Below are positions 936 to 38,086 of a stretch of 38,086 nucleotides of DNA, piece by piece. Source of the stretch: a virus (Duplodnaviria > Heunggongvirae > Uroviricota > Caudoviricetes); the IMG/VR virus record IMGVR_UViG_2684622669_000016, positions 1-38,086 of that record; one strand, written 5' to 3'. The notes beneath the pieces are model-generated. The model did not search any database. It saw nothing but the letters and a program-made list of their open reading frames with translations, and was not told the origin of the DNA. Position 1 is the first letter of the stretch, and the number at the start of each line of letters is the position of its first letter. The translations under genes were made by a program, and so were the position numbers.

Positions 936-2621
936 GTGAATATAAACGTCGCCGAATTGTTAAATGGGAATTACATTCTGTTATTATTTGTGGTCCTCGC
1001 GCTTGGGCTGTGTCTCGGGAAATTACGACTTGGCTCAATCCAACTGGGTAATTCCATTGGCGTTTTGGTCGTATCGCTGTTATTAGGCCAACAACATTTC
1101 AGCATTAACACCGACGCACTGAATCTTGGTTTTATGCTGTTTATTTTCTGCGTCGGGGTCGAAGCCGGACCCAACTTTTTTTCCATTTTTTTTCGCGATG
1201 GGAAAAATTATCTAATGTTAGCCCTGGTAATGGTCGGCAGTGCGCTGCTGATCGCCTTAGGGCTGGGTAAGCTGTTTGGCTGGGACATCGGCCTGACAGC
1301 CGGGATGTTAGCTGGCTCCATGACTTCAACACCAGTTCTGGTTGGTGCCGGCGATACGTTACGCCATTCTGGTATGGAAAGCAGGCAGCTCTCTCTGGCA
1401 CTGGATAATCTTAGCCTCGGGTATGCGTTAACCTATTTAATTGGTCTGGTCAGTCTGATTGTCGGCGCGCGTTATTTACCGAAGTTGCAGCATCAGGACT
1501 TGCAGACCAGTGCTCAACAGATCGCCCGTGAACGAGGTCTGGACACCGACGCCAGCCGTAAAGTCTATTTACCAGTCATCCGCGCCTACCGTGTCGGCCC
1601 GGAGCTGGTTGCATGGACCGACGGCAAAAATCTACGAGAACTGGGCATCTATCGGCAAACGGGTTGCTATATCGAGCGTATCCGCCGTAATGGGATTCTG
1701 GCGAACCCGGATGGCGATGCCGTGCTGCAAATGGGTGATGAAATTGCGTTGGTCGGTTACCCTGACGCCCACGCCCGACTCGATCCCAGCTTCCGTAACG
1801 GTAAAGAAGTTTTTGATCGTGACCTTCTCGATATGCGTATCGTCACTGAAGAGGTAGTAGTTAAAAACCATAACGCCGTTGGTAAACGTCTGGCGCAATT
1901 GAAATTGACCGATCACGGTTGCTTCCTTAACCGCGTCATCCGCAGCCAGATAGAGATGCCAATCGATGATAACGTGGTGCTTAATAAAGGTGACGTGTTG
2001 CAAGTCAGTGGTGATGCCCGTCGCGTGAAAACCATCGCCGATCGCATTGGCTTTATCTCAATTCACAGCCAGGTTACCGATTTGCTGGCATTCTGCGCAT
2101 TCTTTGTCATTGGTCTGATGATTGGGATGATCACTTTCCAGTTCAGTACATTTAGCTTTGGCATGGGTAATGCTGCCGGATTGTTATTTGCCGGTATTAT
2201 GCTGGGCTTTATGCGCGCCAACCATCCTACCTTCGGCTACATTCCGCAGGGTGCCTTAAGCATGGTGAAAGAGTTCGGTTTGATGGTGTTTATGGCAGGC
2301 GTTGGTTTAAGCGCCGGTAGCGGCATCAATAACGGCCTTGGTGCAATTGGCGGTCAAATGCTGATTGCCGGATTGATTGTCAGTCTGGTGCCAGTGGTTA
2401 TCTGCTTCCTGTTCGGTGCTTACGTACTGCGTATGAACCGCGCGCTGTTATTCGGCGCAATGATGGGAGCACGTACTTGCGCTCCGGCAATGGAGATTAT
2501 CAGCGATACTGCGCGCAGTAATATCCCGGCGCTGGGCTATGCAGGTACCTATGCAATAGCTAACGTGCTACTGACGCTGGCGGGGACAATCATTGTAATG
2601 GTGTGGCCAGGACTCGGATAA
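936..2621 (+). CDS. ybjL: putative transporter YbjL (duplicated membrane domains around cytoplasmic TrkA-C-like domains)
   Basis: 561-aa ORF, hydrophobic N- and C-terminal halves with a soluble central region; matches E. coli YbjL as recalled. Confidence 0.9.
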
Positions 2622-2733
2622 ACCTGAAGTTGCCCTGAGAATGAAATTTTTTTGCACAAGCGCAGAACTTTTCTTCGGGGCATCAGTCTTAATTAGTGCC
2701 ACTGCTTTTCTTTGATGTCCCCATTTTGTGGAG

Positions 2734-2776
2734 CCCATCAACCCCGCCATTTAGGTTCAAGGTTGATGGGTTTTTT
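2734..2776 (+). terminator. rho-independent terminator downstream of ybjL
   Basis: Perfect 10-bp stem cccatcaacc (2734-2743) / ggttgatggg (2761-2770) followed by TTTTTT (2771-2776). Confidence 0.55.
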
Positions 2777-2834
2777 GTTGCCTGAAATTTAAGCTATTTA
2801 AAATCATGATGTTAGAAACACTGTTTTTTAACGA

Positions 2835-2856
2835 TGGCGACAAAATGGCGGCAGCG
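2835..2856. repeat. left prophage attachment core (attL): tggcgacaaaatggcggcagcg
   Basis: 22-bp direct repeat of 38047-38068 (21/22 identical); lies between host ybjL and the first phage gene, ogr. Confidence 0.6.
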
Positions 2857-3075
2857 TCAAAGAGAGAGCGCCACCTGTCCTGATTTCATTGGATGCGGCT
2901 GAACCGGATTTGACTCTTTTGGCGTTGCAATCGAACGAACAAAAGTTTCATGGGTAACAAAAGTATGGCTGCAGTTAATGTTCTGGCACTGGTTGTAACG
3001 CTCTTTGGTCAATGAAGATACCTGAAAACTGCTGCGAGTATGGGCGGCACTTCCACACAGTGGGCAAATCATCAT
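2857..3075 (-). CDS. ogr: late-gene transcription activator Ogr (186 B equivalent), C4 zinc finger
   Basis: 72 aa from the internal ATG at 3075 (MMICPLCGSAAHTRSS...CQNINCSHTF); Cys-x2-Cys...Cys-x4-Cys pattern and position after D as in P2. Confidence 0.8.
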   Translation of the reverse strand: MMICPLCGSAAHTRSSFQVSSLTKERYNQCQNINCSHTFVTHETFVRSIATPKESNPVQPHPMKSGQVALSL

Positions 3076-3165
3076 TTTTCGAGTTCTCCCCATTTTTGCT
3101 AAATTCACAATAATGATACCGCATTATTCCATTTTGCAAACTTAAAAGTTCTCCATTGCGAAGAA

Positions 3166-4266
3166 TCATTCCATTTCGAAATCATCAATCCTCACTTCAA
3201 GCTCCAGACTGGTCGTGAAACCATTATCCGGGCTGACAGTATGTGTCAGGGTGGTAATGGTCCATTCCGCATCATCTATCGGCTGTTTAAAGCCACTGAC
3301 TTTCACTGGCATTTCCGTGTAGAGATCTGCCCGACCTTCCGCCAGTTGTAGCGAGAATGTCGCAACACCGCGTTGCAGGCGTTCCCACTGCATTTTCGCC
3401 GCTCGTTCGGCGTTGCTCCGGTTGGCATAAGTGCGATTAAGTACCAGCACGTTTTCATCCGTACCCACCAGGTAATCGCCCTGCTTCGCTTCCGGCTCTT
3501 TCTTCTGCTTCTTAGTCCTGCGCTTACGCTTCACCGTGGTGCTTTCTTTCTTCTCGGGTTCGCGGGTATGCAACCAGCTGGCAATTACGCCCGTGTAGGC
3601 TCCGCGATCTGCCAGGGTAAAGCGGTGACTGTCGCCGTCCTTACGTGTGATAGTGATAACCGGTAGTGGTTTACCGCTGGCGCTTTTGCCCTGTCCCTGC
3701 CGAATGAATAACAGATTGCCATTTTTCACCGACGCAATAGCACCGTACTGGCGCGCCAGCCGCATCAAAAAACTGCCGTCACTTTCATTGGTCTGGTCTA
3801 TATGATCCACGGGTTTATTCGACAGGTCTTTACCCAGTGCCATCTTCAGTTTGTGCCGCGCGGCTATTTCCTTCACCACTTCCCCGACTGTGGTCTTGTG
3901 CCACGACTTTTCACGGCGGGTATTCAGCGTTTCACGAAAATCAGCACTTCGCGCCCGGATAGTCAGGCGATCCGGTGCGCCAGTGTGTTCAATCTCGTCC
4001 ACCGTGAATGCCCCTTTCGGGAAAAGCGGCTGCCCCTTCCAGCCCAGCGCCAGCGTAATGACCGCACCACGGCGCGGCAGCGCGATTTTTCCGTCGGCGT
4101 CGTCCAGTTCCAGATCAAGCTGGTCTGCTTCAAAGCCCCGGTTATCCGTCAACGTCAGCCCCATCAGGCGGTTGTCCAGCACAGTGGTGATATCCCTGCC
4201 CTCAATACTGATGCTGAATGCCGGAGTTTTGTTGCCTTTGTTAAGCAGTTCAGAGCTGAAATTCAC
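3166..4266 (-). CDS. D: tail protein D (late control gene D)
   Basis: 366 aa; N-terminus and overall pattern resemble P2 gpD; position at the end of the tail operon. Confidence 0.9.
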   Translation of the reverse strand: MNFSSELLNKGNKTPAFSISIEGRDITTVLDNRLMGLTLTDNRGFEADQLDLELDDADGKIALPRRGAVITLALGWKGQPLFPKGAFTVDEIEHTGAPDRLTIRARSADFRETLNTRREKSWHKTTVGEVVKEIAARHKLKMALGKDLSNKPVDHIDQTNESDGSFLMRLARQYGAIASVKNGNLLFIRQGQGKSASGKPLPVITITRKDGDSHRFTLADRGAYTGVIASWLHTREPEKKESTTVKRKRRTKKQKKEPEAKQGDYLVGTDENVLVLNRTYANRSNAERAAKMQWERLQRGVATFSLQLAEGRADLYTEMPVKVSGFKQPIDDAEWTITTLTHTVSPDNGFTTSLELEVRIDDFEME

Positions 4267-10793: not shown

Positions 10794-11174
10794 GCGGCAA
10801 AACGGAATATCGGTGCTGGAGCCAATCAAGTCCCCGACATGTCCTTTTTTACATCAGCAAAGGGTGATAACGGATACTTTTCCTTACCGGACGGCACTAT
10901 TGTGCAATATGGAAAAGCCACAACGATAAGAAATAATGAAATTAGCCTGGTAACTTTGCCATTTTCCTTTCCCACAAAGTTCTCTCAGGTACTGATAACC
11001 CATGATGATGCCGCAACTACAAATGCAGTTGCTTTTGGCGCCGCCACTCCAAAAACTGTTTCAACATTTCAGGTTGTCGTGCAGAAACTAGATTTTAATA
11101 CCGCCACTGGAGCTGTCACATTACGAACCACTGCTTCACCGTGCTACTTCCGTTATATCGCAATCGGGAGCTAA
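10768..11174 (+). CDS. alternative (silent) tail-fibre C-terminal segment
   Basis: Reading frame continues through the crossover site (…INVGLGEAAK-RNIGAGANQ…) and shares GLGEAAK with H at the other crossover site; would fuse to the H constant part after inversion. Confidence 0.7.
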
Positions 11175-11178
11175 TTTT

Positions 11179-11403
11179 ATGCAAAACAAATACAGTCCAT
11201 CTATGAATACGTTCTTTATGGCTGAATTTATGCGTCGTTACGAACAAGCTGGTACATTGCCTGATGATGCAATAGAGATACCCGATGAAGTATTTAAAGA
11301 ATACACAGGGGAACCACCGGACGGAATGATGAGGGTTGCGGGTAGTGATGGTCTACCCGCATGGGCAGAAATTATTTACACTCAGGAACCATCGGCCAGA
11401 TGA
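11179..11403 (+). CDS. alternative tail-fibre assembly protein, apparently truncated (74 aa)
   Basis: N-terminal Tfa-like region (…GSDGLPAWAEI…) but no conserved C-terminal Tfa domain; 3' end collides with the 3' end of G. Confidence 0.5.
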   Translation: MQNKYSPSMNTFFMAEFMRRYEQAGTLPDDAIEIPDEVFKEYTGEPPDGMMRVAGSDGLPAWAEIIYTQEPSAR

Positions 11404-11827
11404 TATCAGGAGCACTGGAGGTATCAATCAGTTCCAGTGCGTCCAGATAATCCAGCCACAGATTATATTGCGCCAGTTCCTCACCTTTCAGACGCCCGAT
11501 TGCTGCTTTGCCGGGCCACTGCTTGCTATTCATATAATCGTTGGCCTGGTCAATTCTCGACTGCTTTTCTGAGTCAGCCACTGCAAGTTGTTCTTCATGC
11601 GTAGGTGGCGGAAGATCTACCCAGCAAGGCAACCCATCATCACCAATGCTCCGCACTTTACCTTCGGGAGCTTCTCCCATGAAAACCAGCGCATCGGCAG
11701 CATTTATATTGATGCCGTCTGACGGCCATGTGCCAGCAGTTAAATAATCATCTTGTAGTGCTACAAGATAAAAAGCATTTTCAGCCGGGCTGAATACATA
11801 GTCGACCATTAATATCCCACTCCCCAT
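11372..11827 (-). CDS. G: tail-fibre assembly protein (P2 G-like)
   Basis: 151 aa; C-terminal motif …QYNLWLDYLDALELIDTSSAPDIIWPMVP typical of the caudoviral tail-fibre assembly domain. Confidence 0.85.
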   Translation of the reverse strand: MGSGILMVDYVFSPAENAFYLVALQDDYLTAGTWPSDGININAADALVFMGEAPEGKVRSIGDDGLPCWVDLPPPTHEEQLAVADSEKQSRIDQANDYMNSKQWPGKAAIGRLKGEELAQYNLWLDYLDALELIDTSSAPDIIWPMVPECK

Positions 11828-13212
11828 ACTGCCACTGTTGAATTAGATTTCGTATATGCGCAAGCGGCTTTGAATTTGACCCGGTCAACAATCGCTGCGC
11901 TAACAAAAGGAGCTCCATTAGTCGCGTAGATCACAGAATTGACCAGCGAAGGATTGATGGAAAGGCAAGCATTAGGAAAGGCAACCGGCCATGAGTCATC
12001 AACAACGACCATATTACCGTCGGTAGATTGCGGCACTGATACCATCTTCCACTGAAGCAGTGCTGTTCGTTGTACTCCACCAATTAATACTGGAATAGTG
12101 ATGTTACCTGCACTGCTGGCCAATGCTGTTGCAGCAGGCATTTTTGCCGCTTCTCCCAAACCAAGGTATGTGAGAAGACCAGCTACATCCTTTCCACTCA
12201 AATTAGTCAGCGTATTGTCCAGCGGTTGTTTACCTGCCAGTGCATTAAGCATTGTCGTGGCAAAGTTCGGGTCATTCCCCAGCGCCGCCGCCAGTTCGTT
12301 CAGTGTATCCAGTGCCGCAGGTGCAGAACCCACCATTGCCGCAATCGCCGATTTCACAAAAGCCGTAGTGGCAATCTGTGTATTGTTGACCGACTGCGCC
12401 GCCGTGGGGGCTGTTGGCGTTCCGGTGAGTGCCGGACTCGACAGTGGCGCTTTCAGTGCCAGCGCATTGTTAATGGTGGTACTGAATTTCGGATCATTGT
12501 TAATGGCTACGGCTATTTCTTTCAGCGTGTCCAGCGTGGCTGGAGCACCATTAATAAGAGCCGTCAGTGCCGCCTGAACAAACGCGGTGGTCGCAACCTG
12601 CGTGGTGTTATTCCCCGCCGCTGGCGTTGGCGCTTTGGGGGTTCCGGTAAACGTCGGACTTTCTTTGGGTGCATACTGTGAATGCGGGTCCGGTGCGGCA
12701 AGATGTTTTGCCATCAGGTCATCCACGTACACCTTCAGCTCCAGTGCCTTGTCATCCACATACTTGCGGGTTGCCAGCACTACGGCAGGGTCGATTTTCA
12801 GGGTGATATTGTCCGTGCTGCTGGTAATCAACACCATACGCACGGTCTGGGTACGCCCGCTGCCTTCAGCCAGTTGCGGCTTATAGCTTTCCGGGCAGTT
12901 GCCCACGGCAATCAATGCCCCGGACTCATCAAACAGGCCCACTTCACGTATCCACCAACCGCCCTCGTTTTCAGGGATCACCTGTTCAGCAATAATCTGG
13001 CTGCTGTTCTGCGGGTCGATATAGAGCATATTCAGCGCAGCCCGGCGTTTCTCATTTACTAATGCTGTCTGCTTTGCGTTCGGCGTTGGCAATGTTCCGC
13101 CGCCATCGCCGACCGCCATATGGGTAATTTTTAAAGGCACACCGAGCGCGGCGGCGCTGGCAAGTTTCTCCGCGCCAATATCCGTCAGCAGGGTATAAAA
13201 TTTTGTGCTCAT
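11809..13212 (-). CDS. H: tail-fibre protein H (constant N-terminal part plus currently expressed variable C-terminus)
   Basis: 467 aa; N-terminus resembles P2 gpH; crossover site embedded at the GLGEAAK codons. Confidence 0.9.
   Translation of the reverse strand: MSTKFYTLLTDIGAEKLASAAALGVPLKITHMAVGDGGGTLPTPNAKQTALVNEKRRAALNMLYIDPQNSSQIIAEQVIPENEGGWWIREVGLFDESGALIAVGNCPESYKPQLAEGSGRTQTVRMVLITSSTDNITLKIDPAVVLATRKYVDDKALELKVYVDDLMAKHLAAPDPHSQYAPKESPTFTGTPKAPTPAAGNNTTQVATTAFVQAALTALINGAPATLDTLKEIAVAINNDPKFSTTINNALALKAPLSSPALTGTPTAPTAAQSVNNTQIATTAFVKSAIAAMVGSAPAALDTLNELAAALGNDPNFATTMLNALAGKQPLDNTLTNLSGKDVAGLLTYLGLGEAAKMPAATALASSAGNITIPVLIGGVQRTALLQWKMVSVPQSTDGNMVVVDDSWPVAFPNACLSINPSLVNSVIYATNGAPFVSAAIVDRVKFKAACAYTKSNSTVAVWGVGY
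12151..12176. repeat. gix/hix-like inversion crossover site (left, inside H)
   Basis: ttctcccaaaccaaggtatgtgagaa; inverted repeat of 10768-10793. Confidence 0.7.
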
Positions 13213-26544: not shown

Positions 26545-27285
26545 ATGACTGTGCACAAGCTCTCTGGTGCGTTTTTCCACGATATGCAGGTTGAGTGGCC
26601 CTGCCCTAACTGCAATCAGAAAACCCTACAGATCATTAAAGAAAGTTTCGTCTCGTATGACACACATGATACCCGAAAATTCCGCAGTGAAGATTGGTTT
26701 GAACCAGAAATGGATTCATCTATTTTCAGTTGCATGGCCCGCTGTTCAAGAATGCAATGTGGTGAAGTTGTGGCCTGTACTGGTAAGAGTGGATGGGAAC
26801 AAGGTTGGGATGAAGAAAGAAATGATATTGAGTACTATCAATGGCACAGACCTTTCACCTTTTACCCATCACTGCATCCTTTCGAAATACCTGAAAAATG
26901 CCCAGAAGAAATTACCGAACCGCTTGAAGCCTCATTTTCCATTTTCCTAATACAGCCTGGCGCAGCAGCAAACCTAATTCGAATTTCAGTTGAAAGAATG
27001 CTAACCGCTATGGATGTAGCTGAACGTAATGATAATGGCAAACGCATAACTCTACACCACCGTTTAGGGATGCTACCTGAATTATACGGATCGTTTTCAA
27101 GACCTCTTATGGCAATTAAATTTTTAGGAAATGCCGGAAGCCATACCTACGATGAAGTAAAAGTCAAAGACATTGAGGATGCTTTTGAGATTATGGAGTA
27201 CGTCGTCAATGACTTGTTCTCCGGTCGCAAAGAATCTGTCGAAGTATTGACGAAACGATTAAGTGAAAAATTCAAAGAAAACTGA
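26545..27285 (+). CDS. 246-aa protein: N-terminal Cys-rich zinc-ribbon-like region plus C-terminal DUF4145/HEPN-like domain (candidate abortive-infection effector)
   Basis: Strong SD (tgagga) before the ATG; CPNC…C…CSRMQC cysteine cluster; C-terminal …RITLHHRLG…IKFLGNAGSHTYDE… resembles the DUF4145 signature as recalled; AT-rich. Confidence 0.8.
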   Translation: MTVHKLSGAFFHDMQVEWPCPNCNQKTLQIIKESFVSYDTHDTRKFRSEDWFEPEMDSSIFSCMARCSRMQCGEVVACTGKSGWEQGWDEERNDIEYYQWHRPFTFYPSLHPFEIPEKCPEEITEPLEASFSIFLIQPGAAANLIRISVERMLTAMDVAERNDNGKRITLHHRLGMLPELYGSFSRPLMAIKFLGNAGSHTYDEVKVKDIEDAFEIMEYVVNDLFSGRKESVEVLTKRLSEKFKEN

Positions 27286-27413: not shown

Positions 27414-27647
27414 CTAATGCAGCCAGCTGTCGTCTTCCCACACCTTCTGCATAATTTTCATCACTTGTTTTCTTTCTTCGTCCAGTTGCAGTCCGGTCAG
27501 TTCCACACCGTTAGAGCTACCTTTGCGGATACGAATTACCGTTTTTGGATACAGGGGGCGCAGATTGCGGTAAAGCTCGGATTCAAGGGCATCCAGGATA
27601 GACTGGCTAATCTTCTGCTCTTTATCGATCATTATTTCAATGCGCAT
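27414..27647 (-). CDS. DinI-family protein (Tum C-terminal-domain-like)
   Basis: 77 aa from the ATG at 27647 (MRIEIMIDKEQKISQSILDALESELYRNL…WEDDSWL); matches the DinI fold pattern. Confidence 0.8.
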   Translation of the reverse strand: MRIEIMIDKEQKISQSILDALESELYRNLRPLYPKTVIRIRKGSSNGVELTGLQLDEERKQVMKIMQKVWEDDSWLH

Positions 27648-27657
27648 AAAAGTCACC

Positions 27658-27846
27658 TCAACTGATGACATCCATTGAGCGGTTGTATTCGTGGGTTCTG
27701 ATTTTTGCCATGAGTTCATCTGTTAGTTCAGAAACCCACTGCAAAGCCAGCCCCTTCTCTTCATCACTACACTCACTAGCCGCTACAAGCTTAAGAAAAA
27801 AATCAATGCGCTGGAGCTTCAAAGACTCCAAAAAATAGTCCTGCAT
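27658..27846 (-). CDS. 62-aa protein, first gene of the LexA-controlled operon (possible Tum N-terminal part)
   Basis: Strong SD (ggagg) before the ATG at 27846; LexA box and promoter directly upstream. Confidence 0.6.
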   Translation of the reverse strand: MQDYFLESLKLQRIDFFLKLVAASECSDEEKGLALQWVSELTDELMAKIRTHEYNRSMDVIS

Positions 27847-27887
27847 TTTTCCTCCTATGACACCACAAGCAATACTGTATGCATAAC

Positions 27888-27907
27888 CACTGTTTATATT
27901 TACAGTA
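27888..27907 (-). promoter_or_regulatory. LexA (SOS) box overlapping the promoter of the tum/dinI-like operon
   Basis: caCTGTttatatttACAGta, a perfect CTGT-N8-ACAG; promoter-like TTTACA and an AT-rich -10 just upstream on the minus strand. Confidence 0.7.
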
Positions 27908-32440: not shown

Positions 32441-32530
32441 GGATGCCAGCGTTTACCATCCTCACCCATGATCCAGCCGTGACCGTAGTGCATTGCCGGG
32501 CTTTGTTTTACCAGCAACGATGCAAATGAT
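32441..32530. repeat. direct repeat, copy A (90-bp block; 60-bp core 32471-32530)
   Basis: 60-bp core 58/60 identical to 33274-33333; a conserved ggatgcca lies 30 bp upstream in both copies. Confidence 0.65.
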
Positions 32531-32620
32531 TGTGCCGGGAATTTTTCTACACGCCCGGCGCGTGCCTCAGTGGTAGACTATTTGTGCTAACAATCATCTA
32601 CCCCTCAAAGGAGAAAACTG

Positions 32621-32701
32621 ATGTCAGAAACAGACAACTTTCATGTACTCCCTCGCCCGGCTCCAGCACCTCAGCCTGAACCGGGGCAAGAGAAGAAATA
32701 G
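32621..32701 (+). CDS. 26-aa Pro-rich small ORF (MSETDNFHVLPRPAPAPQPEPGQEKK), possible leader or partner peptide
   Basis: Strong SD (aaaggag) 8 nt before the ATG; stop 9 nt before the next ATG. Confidence 0.35.
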   Translation: MSETDNFHVLPRPAPAPQPEPGQEKK

Positions 32702-32710
32702 GAATCCGGC

Positions 32711-33169
32711 ATGACTAAACAAAGCTCCGAATACTTCCAATTGCACTACTGTTATTACCTTGAACTAATGACAGCAACGTTCCATGGTCGAGCTGATAAA
32801 TTAATGACAGCAATCCAACTTATAAGCGGAACAGCTGTATTTGCTAATACAGGTCTGGAATGGTTGTTCGCTTTTCCTGTTGTTGTAATCGCAACAATCC
32901 AACTTGTATGGCAACCAGCTATTATTGCGGAACGAGCAAGCGTACAAAGCCGACAATATGGTGAGTTGCTTTACGCCGAGGATGAATTGTCTCCACAGTT
33001 CATTGCACAAAAATTGAAAGCTTTGCATCACTCTGACTCCACAACATTCGGATCTTTGTTAAACCCAGCCTACAAAAGAGCTGCTATTGCCTGTGGTCGG
33101 GTTGACGATGTAAACCTCAGCTTCCAAGAAAAACTTTTCGCTTGGTTCGCAGGTTGTTTGCCGCGTTAA
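32711..33169 (+). CDS. 152-aa predicted membrane protein, opposite-strand cargo gene inside the early operon
   Basis: Two adjacent hydrophobic helices (…LISGTAVFANTGLEWLFAFPVVVIATIQLVWQPAIIA…); antiparallel to every neighbouring gene. Confidence 0.65.
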   Translation: MTKQSSEYFQLHYCYYLELMTATFHGRADKLMTAIQLISGTAVFANTGLEWLFAFPVVVIATIQLVWQPAIIAERASVQSRQYGELLYAEDELSPQFIAQKLKALHHSDSTTFGSLLNPAYKRAAIACGRVDDVNLSFQEKLFAWFAGCLPR

Positions 33170-33350
33170 CCATAAATCTTTGTAGGAATCGCTTTTTATT
33201 TCTTCCCCGGTAAGCCTGTTGCCGGGGTTGTAATTCAAAACTTGGATGCCACTTTTTCCCACAAGGTAAATAAATCCAGCCGTGACCGTAATGCATTGCC
33301 GGGCTTTGTTTTACCAGCAGCGATGCAAATGATGGTTCTTTCGTCAGCAT
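33117..33350 (-). CDS. hypothetical small protein just downstream of cII (77 aa from the ATG at 33350)
   Basis: GAGGTG SD after the cII stop; its 5' region coincides with repeat copy B. Confidence 0.4.
   Translation of the reverse strand: MLTKEPSFASLLVKQSPAMHYGHGWIYLPCGKKWHPSFELQPRQQAYRGRNKKRFLQRFMVNAANNLRTKRKVFLGS
33205..33227 (+). terminator. weak hairpin downstream of the 152-aa gene
   Basis: ccccgg / ccgggg stem around an 11-nt loop; poor T-tract. Confidence 0.25.
33244..33333. repeat. direct repeat, copy B (90-bp block; 60-bp core 33274-33333)
   Basis: Partner of 32441-32530. Confidence 0.65.
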
Positions 33351-33357
33351 AAGCACC

Positions 33358-33876
33358 TCACAGCAAACCAAATGAAGCACCGAGGCCAGTCACGGTATCA
33401 ACTGCACTCGCCATCGCAGGGTTAGCCTGTAAACGGGCCTGCAATGAAACAGCAGCCAACGCCATCAGTCGTGTTACAGAGTTAATGCTGCTGATAGCAT
33501 CACGACGGCCTGCACTGGTTTTTACATCGCCAGATACCGCGCCTGCAGCTACACGCCCGATCTCTGCTGTTGCACTCATGACGTAATGCGGCAGTTTCTC
33601 TTTTGCCACCTCATTAATCGGAACACATGGCAGGCAGTGAATCTGTGCCAGAAAACCATCTACCAGTGTTGAGTCTTCTGTCAGATCAGTAAGCAACCAA
33701 ATTTCTGGTGCGGTTAATAAATGAGGTTGAGCTGGATTCAGCTTGTTCCGCAGAATCTGCACATTCATACCTGCACGTTCTGCCAGTTGCACCAAGTTGT
33801 GGCGCAATGCAAATGCACGACAGGCTTCATCAAAATGTGGATGTTTGGAAACTTGGTAATCAAACATAGTCGACAC
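33358..33876 (-). CDS. cII: phage regulatory protein CII (186 CII-like)
   Basis: 172 aa; …[24 protein letters not shown]…[26 protein letters not shown]… matches the 186 CII family as recalled; follows the apl/cox-like gene. Confidence 0.7.
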
Positions 33877-33899
33877 TCCTGATGCATCCCAAAATGGAA

Positions 33900-34121
33900 C
33901 TAGTTGAATACAACATTGAAATCAGTAAGTGCATCAACGGTAAGAGCAGCAAGGTTGATCATTACCTTTTCTCTTTTCTTGTCTTTCCGAAGGCGATGGC
34001 GAGGGATACGACCATCAGCCAGCATATCGTTGATGGTGTCGATAGAAAGACCAGTAAGTTCGCTATAACGCTCAATTGTGACGTGTGGCGTATTCAGAGT
34101 TATTGAAATGTTAGGGGTCAT
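33900..34121 (-). CDS. Apl/Cox-like small DNA-binding protein (excisionase / lytic-switch regulator)
   Basis: 73 aa with an HTH-like segment; first gene of the operon divergent from cI. Confidence 0.6.
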
Positions 34122-34208
34122 GATGCAACATCTCCTATTGGCTTGTGGTGAGCCGGTATTAATCGTGACAAAACATCACAAAACGGAGAATAGGTTCACA
34201 TAAAGAAT

Positions 34209-35147
34209 ATGCCAACTCAAAAAATCACATTTCGCCATATTGAAGATAGTCTGAAAGCTATGGTCATGCAGAATCGTGGAGGGCAAAAAGTCATTGAGAG
34301 GATACTCAAGGCCTATGGTTTCAAATCACGCCAAGCCTTCTGTAAGCATCTTGGTATTTCACAAAGCACAATGGCTAATAGATATGCACGCGATACCTTC
34401 CCTGCTGATTGGGTTGTTATATGTTCAATGGAAACTGGCGCATCCCTAGAATGGCTGGCCTTTGGTTCTAACAATGCAGAAGAAAGTTCCCCCCCTTATG
34501 TGGAACAACATGATGAAACAGTCCCACATGAGGGGTTTAACAGCAACGCTCATCAATCATCCTTTAAGCGCCGCATTGAGAATCACATTGAGCTTACTAA
34601 CGGAGGAAAAGCCGCGATAGAGAGGATTGTTAATGCTTACGGGTTTAAAACCCGCCAAGCCTTAGCCGACCACCTTGGTATTTCAAAAAGCACATTAGCC
34701 ACACGATACATGCGAGATTCTTTCCCTGCGGATTGGGTGATTAAATGCGCATTAGAAACCAAAGCGGATCTCGCCTGGCTAGTTACAGGAATCGAAACAC
34801 CAAATAGTTCACAAGAAGAAAACACTGTAATTTTAAATAAGTTCAATTTGGTCAATGGCGTGCTTGTCGAGTCAGGTTTTTTATCCATGGATCGGTGTCT
34901 ACTTCCGAAGCAAGAAACTAGCAGCTTGATGTTTGTAAGCAATGGAGAAAAACATGTCATATGTGATAAAGAATTTCACCTAATTAGAGATGGAAAATGG
35001 TTAGTAGGAATTGACAATGAGTTATCTTTAAAAGAGTTAACTCGTTTACCTAAGAACAAAATTCTTGTTTCTGGTGGGAGTAAGGATTTTGAGTGTTCCA
35101 TTGAGGATATTCAAATTATAGCCAGCATTATCTTAACAATACAATAA
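34209..35147 (+). CDS. cI: CI-type immunity repressor with tandemly duplicated N-terminal DNA-binding domain
   Basis: 312 aa; two 186-CI-like units (…ERILKAYGFKSRQAFCKHLGISQSTMANRYARDTFPADWVVICSMETGASLEWL… and …ERIVNAYGFKTRQALADHLGISKSTLATRYMRDSFPADWVIKCALETKADLAWL…) followed by a C-terminal domain. Confidence 0.85.
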   Translation: MPTQKITFRHIEDSLKAMVMQNRGGQKVIERILKAYGFKSRQAFCKHLGISQSTMANRYARDTFPADWVVICSMETGASLEWLAFGSNNAEESSPPYVEQHDETVPHEGFNSNAHQSSFKRRIENHIELTNGGKAAIERIVNAYGFKTRQALADHLGISKSTLATRYMRDSFPADWVIKCALETKADLAWLVTGIETPNSSQEENTVILNKFNLVNGVLVESGFLSMDRCLLPKQETSSLMFVSNGEKHVICDKEFHLIRDGKWLVGIDNELSLKELTRLPKNKILVSGGSKDFECSIEDIQIIASIILTIQ

Positions 35148-35190
35148 CATTGCAGACATTACTTTTAAATACTTACTGGAGGAGTCTAAA

Positions 35191-36960
35191 ATGAATCATC
35201 ATCTTTCAAAGATTTCTATAAAAAACTTTAGATCTTGCAAAGATATTGATATCAATTTTTCTTCATTCACGCCTTTAATCGGTTACAACAATGCTGGTAA
35301 GTCAACGATTTTAAATGCTATTGAATGGCTTTTTAAGAAAAAACTTTTGTCCTCTGATGATTATACTAATCCAGATAACCCTATAGAAGTTATAGGTACA
35401 GTTAAGGGTATTACTGAAGATATTTTGTCAGCTTTAACAGAAGAAAACAGAACTAGAATTTCACCCTACATTATTGACGGGGTATTGATATTTAAGCGTC
35501 AACAGCCTGTTGGTGCTCAAAGTGCAAAAGACGTCAGATTATTAATTAAAAACCCAGAAAATAACGAATTCAGGACATCACCAACGGGTATTGAGAATGC
35601 GATAAAAGCTTTATTTCCAGACCCAATACGTATAGGTGCAATGGAAAATGCAGCGGATGATTCTTCAAAATCAAAAACAGGAACTACAATAGGTAAGTTG
35701 CTGGCAGAATTGAGTTGCAAAATAGAAGAGAAGCACACTCAAAGGATACTAAGCCATTTAAATGCCGTTAATAGAAGAATGACTGCAACCGGTAATAAAC
35801 GAATATCGGACCTCAATGATATTGATGATTCAATAAGTAGTAAAGTTGCTGATTTCTTCCCTGGGATAAGTTTAAAACTACACTTCGAACTCCCTGACTT
35901 CAAGGATATATTTAAATCAGGGACTGTAAAAGTATATGAAGATTCATTTCCCGGCATTGCTCGTGACTGTTCTTCTTATGGTCATGGCACACAGCGTTCG
36001 ATTCAGATGGCTCTAATAAGACATTTAGCTGATATAACCAACGGTGATGATATTAAAACAACTACTCTACTGTTAATAGATGAACCTGAGTTATATCTTC
36101 ACCCATTTGCTATCGAACAAATTAGAGAATCTCTAAAAACACTATCTCATCATGGATATCAAATAATTTTCTCTACCCATTCATCTCAAATGATTACCTC
36201 TGACTTAGCAAAAGACACTGTGTTAATCAGAAAAAACAGTCAGCGTGGCACTCATTGCAGATTAACATTAAAAGAAGCAGTCAATAAAGTAATCGAACAA
36301 CGACCAGCACAAGCAACCCATTTATTTTCATTAACACAGTCTTCAAAAGTTTTGTTTGCTAACAATGTAATACTAACAGAAGGTAAAACAGAGACTACTC
36401 TGCTCCCATTTATTTTTAACAAAGTTAAAAATAAAACATTAGGTCAGATGCAAATAGCACTAATTGAAACAGGGTCCGTTGAAAGTATATCTAAAACGAT
36501 GCAAATTCTAAATTCAATGGATATACCTACAAAAGCAATTGTTGATTTAGATTTTGCGTTCCGCGGTGCAATAAGGAACAACTTCTTAGAACATAATGAC
36601 GAGGATATTTTACGACTAAAAGAAATCTTGAGAAGTATGCATGCTAATGGAGAATGCACTCTCGATGGATCCGGTTTGCCTACAAAGGGTAGTAACACTA
36701 CCGCAGCTGAAGCATTTGCTATTATGTCTCAAAAGCCCGGCGCCAGAGAATTTTTGTCATCATTAGCCGCAAAACTGAGAAATGCAAATATTTGGATTTG
36801 GCTAAATGGTTCGATAGAAAACCATTTGGGTCTTACAGAAAAAAATGAATCAGTATGGGCTGATTTCAAAACAAAAGCAGATACACAACCTCTTTCAGAT
36901 ATCTGTGCAGATTTCGAAAGTATTGAGGCTTTAGTCGACTGGATTACCCCTGACGTATGA
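35191..36960 (+). CDS. old: OLD-family ATPase/Toprim nuclease (P2 Old homologue)
   Basis: 589 aa; Walker A GYNNAGKST; FRSCK, IDEPELYLHP and Toprim VILTEGKTE motifs; collinear with P2 Old as recalled; AT-rich; GGAGG SD. Confidence 0.85.
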   Translation: MNHHLSKISIKNFRSCKDIDINFSSFTPLIGYNNAGKSTILNAIEWLFKKKLLSSDDYTNPDNPIEVIGTVKGITEDILSALTEENRTRISPYIIDGVLIFKRQQPVGAQSAKDVRLLIKNPENNEFRTSPTGIENAIKALFPDPIRIGAMENAADDSSKSKTGTTIGKLLAELSCKIEEKHTQRILSHLNAVNRRMTATGNKRISDLNDIDDSISSKVADFFPGISLKLHFELPDFKDIFKSGTVKVYEDSFPGIARDCSSYGHGTQRSIQMALIRHLADITNGDDIKTTTLLLIDEPELYLHPFAIEQIRESLKTLSHHGYQIIFSTHSSQMITSDLAKDTVLIRKNSQRGTHCRLTLKEAVNKVIEQRPAQATHLFSLTQSSKVLFANNVILTEGKTETTLLPFIFNKVKNKTLGQMQIALIETGSVESISKTMQILNSMDIPTKAIVDLDFAFRGAIRNNFLEHNDEDILRLKEILRSMHANGECTLDGSGLPTKGSNTTAAEAFAIMSQKPGAREFLSSLAAKLRNANIWIWLNGSIENHLGLTEKNESVWADFKTKADTQPLSDICADFESIEALVDWITPDV

Positions 36961-36977
36961 TTTAATATTTACATACA

Positions 36978-36992
36978 TTGACCACTGGTCAA
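36978..36992. promoter_or_regulatory. perfect 15-bp palindrome TTGACCACTGGTCAA flanked by ACATACA direct repeats, upstream of int
   Basis: Seen directly in the sequence; function unknown (possible protein-binding site). Confidence 0.35.
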
Positions 36993-37008
36993 ACATACAG
37001 TTAAATTT

Positions 37009-37033
37009 AGCCCTCTGACATGAGGGCTTTTTT
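37009..37033 (+). terminator. rho-independent terminator after old that sequesters the int ribosome-binding site
   Basis: Stem agccctc (37009-37015) / gagggct (37022-37028), then TTTTT (37029-37033) running directly into the int ATG at 37034. Confidence 0.6.
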
Positions 37034-38086
37034 ATGGCAGTACGAAAACTCACCACAGGAAAATGGCTTTGCGAATGTTACCCCGCCGGACGAAGTGGGC
37101 GTCGTGTGCGTAAACAATTCGCCACCAAAGGCGAAGCACTGGCTTTTGAGCGTCACACGATGGAAGAAACCGAAGCAAAGCCCTGGCTGGGTGAATCAGT
37201 GGATCGTCGAACACTGAAAGACGTGGTTGAGCTATGGTTCAAACTACATGGTAAATCTCTGACAGCTGGGCAGCATGTCTATGACAAATTGCTGTTGATG
37301 GTTGACGCTCTGGGCAATCCTCTTGCAACCGATCTCACCTCTAAAATGTTTGCCCACTATCGAGATAAACGACTGACAGGCGAGATCTACTTCAGCGAGA
37401 AATGGAAGAAAGGAGCAAGCCCGGTCACCATTAACCTGGAGCAAAGCTATCTAAGTAGTGTTTTTAGCGAACTATCCCGTCTGGGCGAATGGTCGTATCC
37501 GAACCCACTGGAGAACATGCGAAAATTCACCATCGCAGAAAAAGAGATGGCATGGCTTACCCATGAGCAGATTGTTGAATTGCTGGCTGATTGCAAACGT
37601 CAGGACCCAATTCTGGCACTGGTAGTCAAGATATGCTTAAGCACAGGCGCACGCTGGCGAGAAGCAATAAATCTTACCCGTTCACAGGTGACTAAATACC
37701 GAATTACCTTTGTAAGAACGAAGGGGAAGAAAAACAGAAGCATCCCTATCAGTAAAGAGCTTTACGAAGAGATCATGGCGCTTGATGGTTTCAATTTCTT
37801 CACAGACTGCTATTTTCAATTTTTATCCGTGATGGAAAAAACGTCTATCGTGCTCCCTCGCGGTCAACTGACACACGTTCTGCGCCATACGTTTGCGGCG
37901 CATTTCATGATGTCGGGTGGAAATATCCTTGCTTTGCAAAAAATCCTCGGACATCACGATATAAAAATGACGATGCGTTACGCACATCTGGCACCGGATC
38001 ATCTGGAAACGGCGCTCCGTTTCAATCCTCTGGCAACGCTGCCAAGTGGCGACAAAGTGGCGGCAGCGGTTGGCATTACCCCGTAA
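37034..38086 (+). CDS. int: P2-type tyrosine integrase
   Basis: 350 aa; N-terminus and catalytic region (…LSTGARWREA…VLRHTFAAHFMMSGGNILALQKILGHHDIKMTMRYAHL…) resemble P2 Int. Confidence 0.9.
   Translation: MAVRKLTTGKWLCECYPAGRSGRRVRKQFATKGEALAFERHTMEETEAKPWLGESVDRRTLKDVVELWFKLHGKSLTAGQHVYDKLLLMVDALGNPLATDLTSKMFAHYRDKRLTGEIYFSEKWKKGASPVTINLEQSYLSSVFSELSRLGEWSYPNPLENMRKFTIAEKEMAWLTHEQIVELLADCKRQDPILALVVKICLSTGARWREAINLTRSQVTKYRITFVRTKGKKNRSIPISKELYEEIMALDGFNFFTDCYFQFLSVMEKTSIVLPRGQLTHVLRHTFAAHFMMSGGNILALQKILGHHDIKMTMRYAHLAPDHLETALRFNPLATLPSGDKVAAAVGITP
38047..38068. repeat. right prophage attachment core (attR): tggcgacaaagtggcggcagcg
   Basis: 21/22 identical direct repeat of 2835-2856; lies within the last codons of int. 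Confidence 0.6.

Follow-up and report, generated by a model that had tools for sequence, protein, structure and literature searches.

Why the immunity repressor of a 186-like prophage should carry two DNA-binding heads is the question raised by the cI gene of a P2/186-like (Peduoviridae) Escherichia coli prophage represented by IMG/VR record IMGVR_UViG_2684622669_000016, the whole 38,086-nucleotide stretch of which was analyzed and is referred to below as the window. The CI protein of phage 186 is the textbook alternative to the lambda switch: it has one head per subunit and is proposed to assemble into a 14-mer wheel made up of seven dimers, which would wrap or loop DNA and in which wrapping depends on operator phasing. 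The structure 2FJR represents full-length 186 CI, and 2FKD represents its C-terminal domain (CTD) as the 14-mer wheel. A sequence-only reading of the window had proposed that its 312-aa CI is an immunity repressor with a tandem duplication of the N-terminal DNA-binding domain (NTD). Here, we report that the protein does contain two homologous heads ahead of one CTD, that the heads belong to different repressor lineages, and that the two-headed form is an old, common, recurrently evolved and apparently unstudied variant of 186 CI, which is not peculiar to the prophage in the window.

The open reading frame (ORF) list bears out the cI gene exactly as it had been read, at 34209..35147 on the plus strand, with 312 codons and a stop. 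The gene encodes, in this order, a leader of 20 codons (MPTQKITFRHIEDSLKAMVM; 34209..34268); the first head, D1, an alpha-type helix-turn-helix (HTH) domain with the recognition helix SQSTMANRYARD (residues 21-91; 34269..34481); an inter-head linker that is disordered and hypervariable by model confidence and alignment (residues 92-128; 34482..34592); the second head, D2, a beta-type HTH domain with the recognition helix SKSTLATRYMRD (residues 129-199; 34593..34805); and the C-terminal oligomerization domain, assigned from PF16452 and a Foldseek match to 2FKD (residues 206-311; 34824..35141), all on the plus strand. Both heads were delimited with a domain hidden Markov model (HMM). In a local alignment of the first 105 residues against the rest of the protein, residues 9-94 paired with residues 121-205 (45 identities in 82 positions), and the score of 226 against 26.9 +/- 4.5 in 1000 shuffles (z = 44) means that the repeat passed the statistical self-alignment test. 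Pfam recognized PF07022 (Phage_CI_repr) in two stretches (E 1.6e-58) and a single PF16452 (Phage_CI_C) at residues 210-308 (E 1.4e-22), in agreement with the PHROGs label of transcriptional repressor; no NCBIfam model matched the 312-aa CI, and Pfam gave no PF00717 match, the S24 peptidase family, in it. Pfam, the domain HMM and the AlphaFold2 model agree on two 186-CI-type N-terminal units before one CTD, and this architecture can be regarded as virtually certain. The amino acid identity between D1 and D2 is 55-62% depending on the span, close to the 55-60% read from the letters alone, whereas the DNA identity, which had been put at about 75%, is only 63-65% over the aligned units and 71% over the best 98 nt. 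At third codon positions the identity falls to 41.5%, and synonymous sites are saturated.

The fold was predicted with AlphaFold2 for the monomer, using a 33-sequence alignment (mean predicted local distance difference test, pLDDT, 78.8). Two five-helix bundles were obtained, with helices at residues 25-85 and 133-193 modelled at pLDDT of about 85-90, together with a beta-rich CTD at pLDDT>90; residues 89-126 between the heads are at pLDDT<50. The top Foldseek matches are 2FJR (E 1e-17) and the 186 CTD in 2FKD (template modelling score, TM, 0.89; root-mean-square deviation, rmsd, 1.2 A), so that the fold of the CTD is conserved at a sequence identity of 33% to 186; a resemblance to LexA is distant and in fold only (E 4e-6). 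As the sequence-only reading had stated, 186 CI has one such domain in about 190 aa: 2FJR, with 189 aa, aligns to CI residues 136-308 only (E 2e-28), so that the first 130 residues are what the window protein has in addition. D2 together with the CTD aligns with 2FJR end to end, which puts D2 where 186 CI has its only NTD, and both this alignment and the AlphaFold2 model show a short D2-CTD junction. The five-helix HTH of the Phage_CI_repr type is thus present by PF07022, by the model and by phmmer and Foldseek matches to 2FJR, and the Phage_CI_C-type CTD by PF16452 and 2FKD, whereas the canonical one-head form of about 185-210 aa is not matched by a protein of 312 aa with two heads. CI is a variant architecture in the 186-type family (PF07022 and PF16452) and not a canonical member; it differs from 186 CI in having two heads per subunit in place of one, a disordered linker of about 38 aa, and the 20-codon leader that overlaps the lytic promoter pR.

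An unusual length by itself, and the existence of one truncated relative of 229-231 aa lacking the CTD (L013/P0041), could suggest an artefact, either a false fusion of two neighbouring genes through a sequencing or frameshift error or a pseudogene in decay. However, 14 complete E. coli genomes and 5 IMG/VR contigs carry the 312-aa ORF at 99% identity, the reading frame stays open across the hypervariable linker in dozens of diverged homologs, and both heads are under strong purifying selection; this explanation is effectively refuted. In Nei-Gojobori estimates from eight long-form genes, the proportions of nonsynonymous (pN) and synonymous (pS) differences were 0.071 and 0.683 for D1 (dN/dS about 0.05) and 0.154 and 0.741 for D2 (dN/dS about 0.10), as compared with 0.49 and 0.74 for the inter-head linker (dN/dS about 0.5) and 0.46 and 0.70 for the CTD (dN/dS about 0.37). 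The recognition helices of both heads are near-invariant across proteins that are about 50% identical overall. The linker shares 12-30% identity with relatives and varies in length with its frame always open. Selection of this strength on both heads argues that D1 and D2 are both functional. The leader behaves differently, with a pS of 0.31 (0.68-0.74 elsewhere) and a dN/dS of 0.75, which points to constraint on the DNA rather than on the protein and would fit the presence within it of the pR -35 element and a TCACA motif. Its translation, and with it the true cI start, is uncertain: M18 and M20 are alternative starts, and the start that the Prokaryotic Genome Annotation Pipeline (PGAP) gives one homolog is an internal Met.

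The recurrence of the duplicated form in related prophages, which the sequence-only reading had put forward as a check, is extensive. Among the 120 closest clusters at 90% identity, from E. coli, Salmonella, Klebsiella, Citrobacter, Enterobacter, Kosakonia and Edwardsiella, two heads are present in all 46 that are of >=220 aa, and one head in the 75 clusters of 180-209 aa. Related repressors of the same length being the norm, with diverged and non-duplicated domains, had been named as evidence that would count against the claim; same-length repressors are indeed common, but every one of them is also two-unit, and none with non-duplicated domains was found. At least 218 of 5,426 complete E. coli genomes (about 4%), CFT073 included, have the two-head region in one gene, and the window cI region itself is 99.7% identical in 14 of the 5,426. 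The two-head form is also present in 50 of the best 80 IMG/VR loci and in sequenced phages, e.g. Klebsiella phage 4LV2017. An exhaustive phmmer search of 1.84 billion representatives with D1 showed its family to be small (190 matches), with two heads in 24 of 83 full-length representatives (29%) and more than two in none; representatives with 4-7 apparent stretches, considered as multi-head CI, proved to be arrays of SUMO/ubiquitin or of generic HTH_3 domains. A scan in which each species was represented by a single genome gave mostly single-head proteins, across Enterobacterales, and three two-head loci. In the 99.7% identical E. coli prophage the protein is annotated 'phage repressor protein CI' (WP_042096903.1). 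No paper describing a two-headed 186-type CI was found in literature searches, and in a 2011 survey that covered 18 CI proteins from P2-like phages, longer 'couplers' are all that is mentioned (PMC3448106).

Two further forms were observed. Two-head proteins of 227-231 aa lack the CTD (L013, Dryocola sp. BD586, 2495-3190; P0041; P0051) and may be either decaying genes or free-standing two-head DNA binders. Tandem cI genes on one strand occur in E. coli PCP06171 (L094, NZ_CM129872.1; 1881-2450 and 2501-3424) and in L115, L116 and L138: a beta CI of 189-191 aa lies by a beta switch and is followed, 50 bp downstream, by a two-head CI of 307 aa without a switch. The head of the former is 67% identical to D2 of the latter, and the two CTDs are 49% identical.

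The claim of a duplicated N-terminal domain stands in so far as the two units are homologous; a simple tandem duplication is not what the domain tree shows. In a bootstrapped neighbour-joining (NJ) tree of the heads, D1 and D2 were sisters in none of 300 replicates. D1 falls together with its counterparts in other long forms and with nine single-head repressors, each about 208 aa long and carrying the same 20-residue leader, a class termed here alpha (bootstrap support 94%), whereas D2 groups with the heads of ordinary single-head repressors of 185-199 aa, termed beta, its recognition helix SKSTLATRYMRD being identical in 12 single-head beta loci. A recent intragenic tandem duplication was ruled out by the absence of sisterhood, the alpha clade support and the third-position identity. 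Non-sister heads and saturated synonymous sites indicate that the two-head event is old; two repressor lineages may have been fused here or, alternatively, a single head may have been duplicated in the distant past. The alpha single-head repressors could likewise be either the ancestors, in the case of fusion, or deletion derivatives of the long form, in the case of ancient duplication. Their heads are D1-like over about 55 residues and then have a D2-like tail (WLxxGxGxxF), which was considered for telling the two apart and proved uninformative, the tail being a generic head-CTD junction motif.

Comparison with individual relatives resolves the gene into exchangeable parts. The alpha repressors (Salmonella P0077, 208 aa; CI of Klebsiella phage ST13-OXA48phi12.1, 206 aa) share with the window a D1-lineage head, the same leader and the helix SQSTMANRYARD, the same type of switch block with TCACA repeats and the same candidate operator between apl and cII, but their single head is joined directly to the CTD. 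The beta repressor of a near-collinear prophage (L007/P0037, 185 aa) has a recognition helix identical to that of D2; the window D2 and CTD are 82% and 65% identical to this protein, and the prophage shares nearly the same backbone and old-int neighbourhood (apl, cII, fil, the 152-aa ORF, the nuclease and int are all shared), but it lacks D1 and has an unrelated switch in which a TTCAC-CTGGA-GTGAC dyad abuts the ATG. By blastn, window positions 32530-34136 and 34614-37573 align to this prophage at 78-79%, and the unaligned block between them, a 477-bp module at 34137..34613 (plus strand), replaces 138 bp. Exactly the switch, leader, D1 and linker are exchanged between the two, i.e. D1 travels with the switch. 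Against other long-form phages (L002, L009, L011), blastn identity of 87-90% runs from cII up to 34759 and then ends, placing a recombination breakpoint at 34759..34760, in codon 184 within D2. The end of this homology inside D2 shows cI itself to be recombinant and D2 to be interchangeable with a stand-alone head; the sequence downstream of 34760 (the rest of D2, the CTD and old) comes from an L007-like lineage.

Other two-head groups differ from this one. In P0206, P0236, P0243, P0247/P0256 and P0261 the two heads are mutual best matches, as expected of true tandem duplications, and a separate large group (P0122-P0202) has 18-30-aa linkers and very divergent heads. These observations, together with a distant S24 relative (P0265, 335 aa) in which two PF07022 heads precede a LexA-like Peptidase_S24 in place of PF16452, indicate that the architecture arose several times, and such independent recurrence argues for a selective advantage of double valency. 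The 281-aa CI of L046 (Buttiauxella massiliensis; 2504-3349), with divergent heads, the helices PAANVSNWVQRN and SSGTISTWIRRD and a 20-aa linker, belongs to this large separate lineage.

The position of cI supports the view of it as the immunity repressor of a 186-like prophage, as had been read from the window: it is divergent from apl-cII-fil and lies upstream of int. With P2-type structural genes to the left, the minus strand carries fil-cII-apl, and cI, a 589-aa nuclease (old) and int follow (by PGAP in the 99.7% identical prophage), so that, as in 186, cI is placed between int and a face-to-face pR/pL switch. The apl-like gene, first of the lytic operon, encodes 73 aa (33900..34121, minus strand), and the very same protein accompanies different alleles of long-form cI; between cI and apl lie 87 bp, as compared with 129 bp in 186. 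A pR-like lytic promoter was located by promoter scan at 34187..34215 (minus strand), with a -35 element TTGGCA (34215..34210) over the cI ATG and a -10 element TATTCT (34192..34187). In relatives the -35 element is TTGACA and the block CGGAGAATAGG is invariant; when reverse-complemented, the end of this element (TTGACAT) gives the cI ATG. The face-to-face layout of pR and cI is that annotated for 186; consensus matching did not fix the exact position of pL.

Conservation at pR singles out candidate CI operators at 34165..34229 (plus strand), namely a GTGAC-N5-ATCAC dyad (34165-34179) and three WTCACA repeats on one strand (34175, 34195 and 34224; spacing 20 and 29 bp), the third of which, site III, lies in the cI leader. 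Three same-strand TCACA within 66 bp, at 34176, 34196 and 34225, have a Poisson P of 3.6e-5, calculated post hoc, and the dyad class GTGAY-N5-RTCAC, with its single match at 34165, is not significant alone. The region 34165-34240 is common to the long-form and alpha single-head phages (CGTGAC-N5/6-WTCACA-N3-CGGAGAATAGG-WTCRCA-N9-ATGTCAAC-N7-AWCACATTTCGCCAT), and the alpha single-head L004 has the 34175-34240 block with all three TCACA repeats and pR. In contrast, the switch of the beta short-form phages is unrelated to this block, its L007-type sequence being …GATCG…TTCACCTGGAGTGAC. In the tandem-cI lineage (PCP06171 and three IMG/VR contigs), where the long cI has no upstream switch, the leader TCACA has decayed; this loss where the switch is absent supports the motif as an operator tied to the switch of D1.

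Candidate sites were also identified at the two other places bound by 186 CI. By comparison with the annotated 186 genome, ATCCC-AAAAT-GGAAC at the apl-cII junction (33886..33900, plus strand) occupies the position of the 186 FR operator. At the promoter (pB) of the B/ogr late-activator homolog (3075..2860, minus strand), three candidate CI sites lie at 3126..3182 (minus strand): ATTTCGAAATGGAAT (3182..3168), CTTCGCAATGGAGAAC (3163..3148) and TTTGCAAAATGGAAT (3140..3126, over the -35 element). The FR/pB-type motif, at <=1 mismatch, has only two matches in the 38-kb window, at 33886 and 3168. The three AATGGAR repeats at pB are kept in 4LV2017, whereas pB of the alpha single-head phage ST13 has one good copy (TTCAC-AAAAT-GGAAG); 186 CI has two sites there. 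The coincidence of candidate sites at pR, the FR equivalent and pB with the binding places of 186 CI is encouraging. The motifs themselves differ from those of 186, which are TTCAC-N5-GTGAA and a palindrome at pR, as against WTCACA repeats and ...AAAT-GGAAY in the window. Matches to TTCAC-N5-GTGAA with <=2 mismatches number 23 in the window against 18 expected and none is near cI, and at <=1 mismatch none is near any long-form or alpha cI, the motif being found only in some beta short-form phages. An assignment of TCACA to D1 and AAATGGAAY to D2 was considered and rejected: the alpha single-head phages carry both and the ST13 pB copy is a hybrid, as in one loose class.

We tentatively favour, at a little under an even chance, the reading that CI is a functional immunity repressor in which D1 and D2 are both used on the phage's own sites. 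An alpha-lineage D1, carried with its own switch DNA, would be tethered by a leash of about 38 residues to a complete beta-lineage repressor consisting of D2 and the CTD. The CTD would assemble 186-like oligomers, with D2 in the wheel-proximal position of the single 186 head and D1 as an outboard head reading the WTCACA operators over pR, as in the single-head alpha repressors. D2 may then add second DNA contacts at loosely related sites of the phage itself, at pR, the FR equivalent and pB, and two heads per subunit would be expected to give higher avidity and to relax the phasing requirement. Engineered single-chain 434/Cro repressors, of unrelated fold and family, provide one conceptual precedent. 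Another is a monomeric two-domain mycobacteriophage immunity repressor (Nat Commun 2022; PMC9283540), in which one polypeptide with two DNA-binding modules likewise reads one asymmetric site or two sites, but which has an unrelated fold and family and joins two unlike domains in a monomer, as opposed to two homologous heads with an oligomerization domain.

Several observations weigh against this reading. The predicted template modelling score (pTM) of 0.41 means no fixed module arrangement, and the model gives no inter-domain geometry. The sequence-only reading expected two modules per monomer to change operator recognition and immunity specificity, but no such change of layout is visible: the pR layout is the same in single-head alpha phages, with nothing in it that visibly needs a second head, and the comparison at pB with the alpha single-head class involves a single phage. 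The FR-like element at 33886..33900 may overlap, or simply be, the -10 element of pE, and the motif class TYCRC-N5-GGARY is loose, partly defined from a site that it then finds, and present also in alpha single-head and beta short-form phages, i.e. with every head type. An FL-like site inside cI at 34442 was discarded, as it has two mismatches and its synonymous positions are not kept in eight relatives. Comparison of the switch, FR and pB gave no operator attributable to D2, and operators could not be predicted from recognition-helix identity, the same helix adjoining unrelated switch sequences.

The unchanged pR layout would also suit a D2 that is mainly architectural, acting as a folded spacer or dimerization element by which D1 is positioned, with no more than non-specific DNA contact, and the several lineages of true tandem duplications with nearly the same heads would fit the logic of a single-chain dimer, in which D1 and D2 form an intramolecular pseudo-dimer reading one operator per subunit. 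For the NTD of 186 CI, only weak dimerization is reported (Shearwin et al. 2002). A mere spacer, however, would not keep its recognition helix invariant, and the 38-aa disordered linker and low pTM give no sign of a fixed D1-D2 packing; we consider this alternative improbable.

A different role for D2 is suggested by its 82% identity, with the same recognition helix, to the stand-alone head of the L007 repressor, whose prophage has the same backbone and is a likely competitor. D1 would run its own alpha switch while D2 would bind the operators of beta-type 186-like phages, making the lysogen immune to two groups. No L007-type TTCAC-N5-GTGAC operators lie next to the window cI, yet D2 is strongly constrained, and a beta prophage lineage carries, behind its short cI, a switch-less long cI in the manner of immunity cargo. 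This explanation is purely inferential, however; beta heads with the same helix adjoin very different switches, so that D2 may match no circulating phage, and cross-immunity would in addition require cooperative binding at several sites, as is typical of 186 CI. It is the strongest of the alternatives, possible though on the unlikely side. The extension of this idea to two-headed CI proteins in general, as dual-specificity repressors that control their own switch via D1 and superinfecting beta phages via D2, with the long cI traded, or even carried without a switch behind another cI, as a defence between phages, is unlikely as it stands; if true, the repeated two-head origins would reflect an arms race over the breadth of immunity.

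The second head might instead concern induction. In the SOS module of the prophage (27414..27900, minus strand), a perfect LexA box (CTGTAAATATAAACAG) is followed by a 62-aa ORF similar to the N-terminal half of 186 Tum (27846..27658, minus strand) and, in a different frame and with an overlap of a few bases, by a 77-aa DinI-like ORF (27647..27414, minus strand; NCBIfam DinI) that is 41% identical to the C-terminal half of 186 Tum (tblastn, Tum residues 71-145, E 5e-20). A LexA/Tum-type SOS module is a further likeness to 186, in whose annotation Tum inhibits DNA binding by CI, and from these elements the prophage is probably induced, as in 186, via a LexA-controlled Tum-like antirepressor and not by self-cleavage; such induction is part of the mechanism we favour. 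One of the two heads could in addition be the target of, or a decoy for, the antirepressor, allowing SOS tuning or resistance to co-resident antirepressors. Both heads keep the conserved DNA-reading helix, for which a decoy would have no need, and we regard this role as quite improbable.

The surroundings of cI contain several further elements. The old gene between cI and int (35191-36960, plus strand) encodes a complete homolog of the Old exclusion nuclease of P2 (PADLOC, E 1e-234). The slot is filled in relatives by GmrSD with HEPN, a P-loop NTPase or hypothetical genes, and this variety of contents marks it as a hotspot for defence cargo; exchanges of the cargo appear to take the cI CTD along. 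Compared with L009 and L003, the window has an insertion of about 740 bp between fil and a DUF5347 gene (32534-33273); it contains an opposite-strand ORF of 152 aa (32711..33169), which is also present in L007 and has no PADLOC match, and a flanking stretch of about 60 bp is matched twice. A 246-aa ORF with CxxC motifs (26545-27285, plus strand) is located between the portal/terminase block and the SOS module. In Klebsiella phage 4LV2017 (L098), a retron St85-family effector and polymerase lie between the replication genes and portal (10905-12888), at another defence cargo site.

Databases label the two-head form simply as 'repressor protein CI'. An abundant natural two-head relative of 186 CI, with one head on a flexible leash, offers a ready-made test of the 186 wheel model, and raises the questions of how many heads are usable per wheel, whether phasing is needed, and whether one head is spare for other DNA. 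If the second head broadens immunity, it would represent a new way for prophages to exclude competitors, and would bear on the prediction of prophage-prophage interference and on the use of 186-type repressors as synthetic-biology parts.

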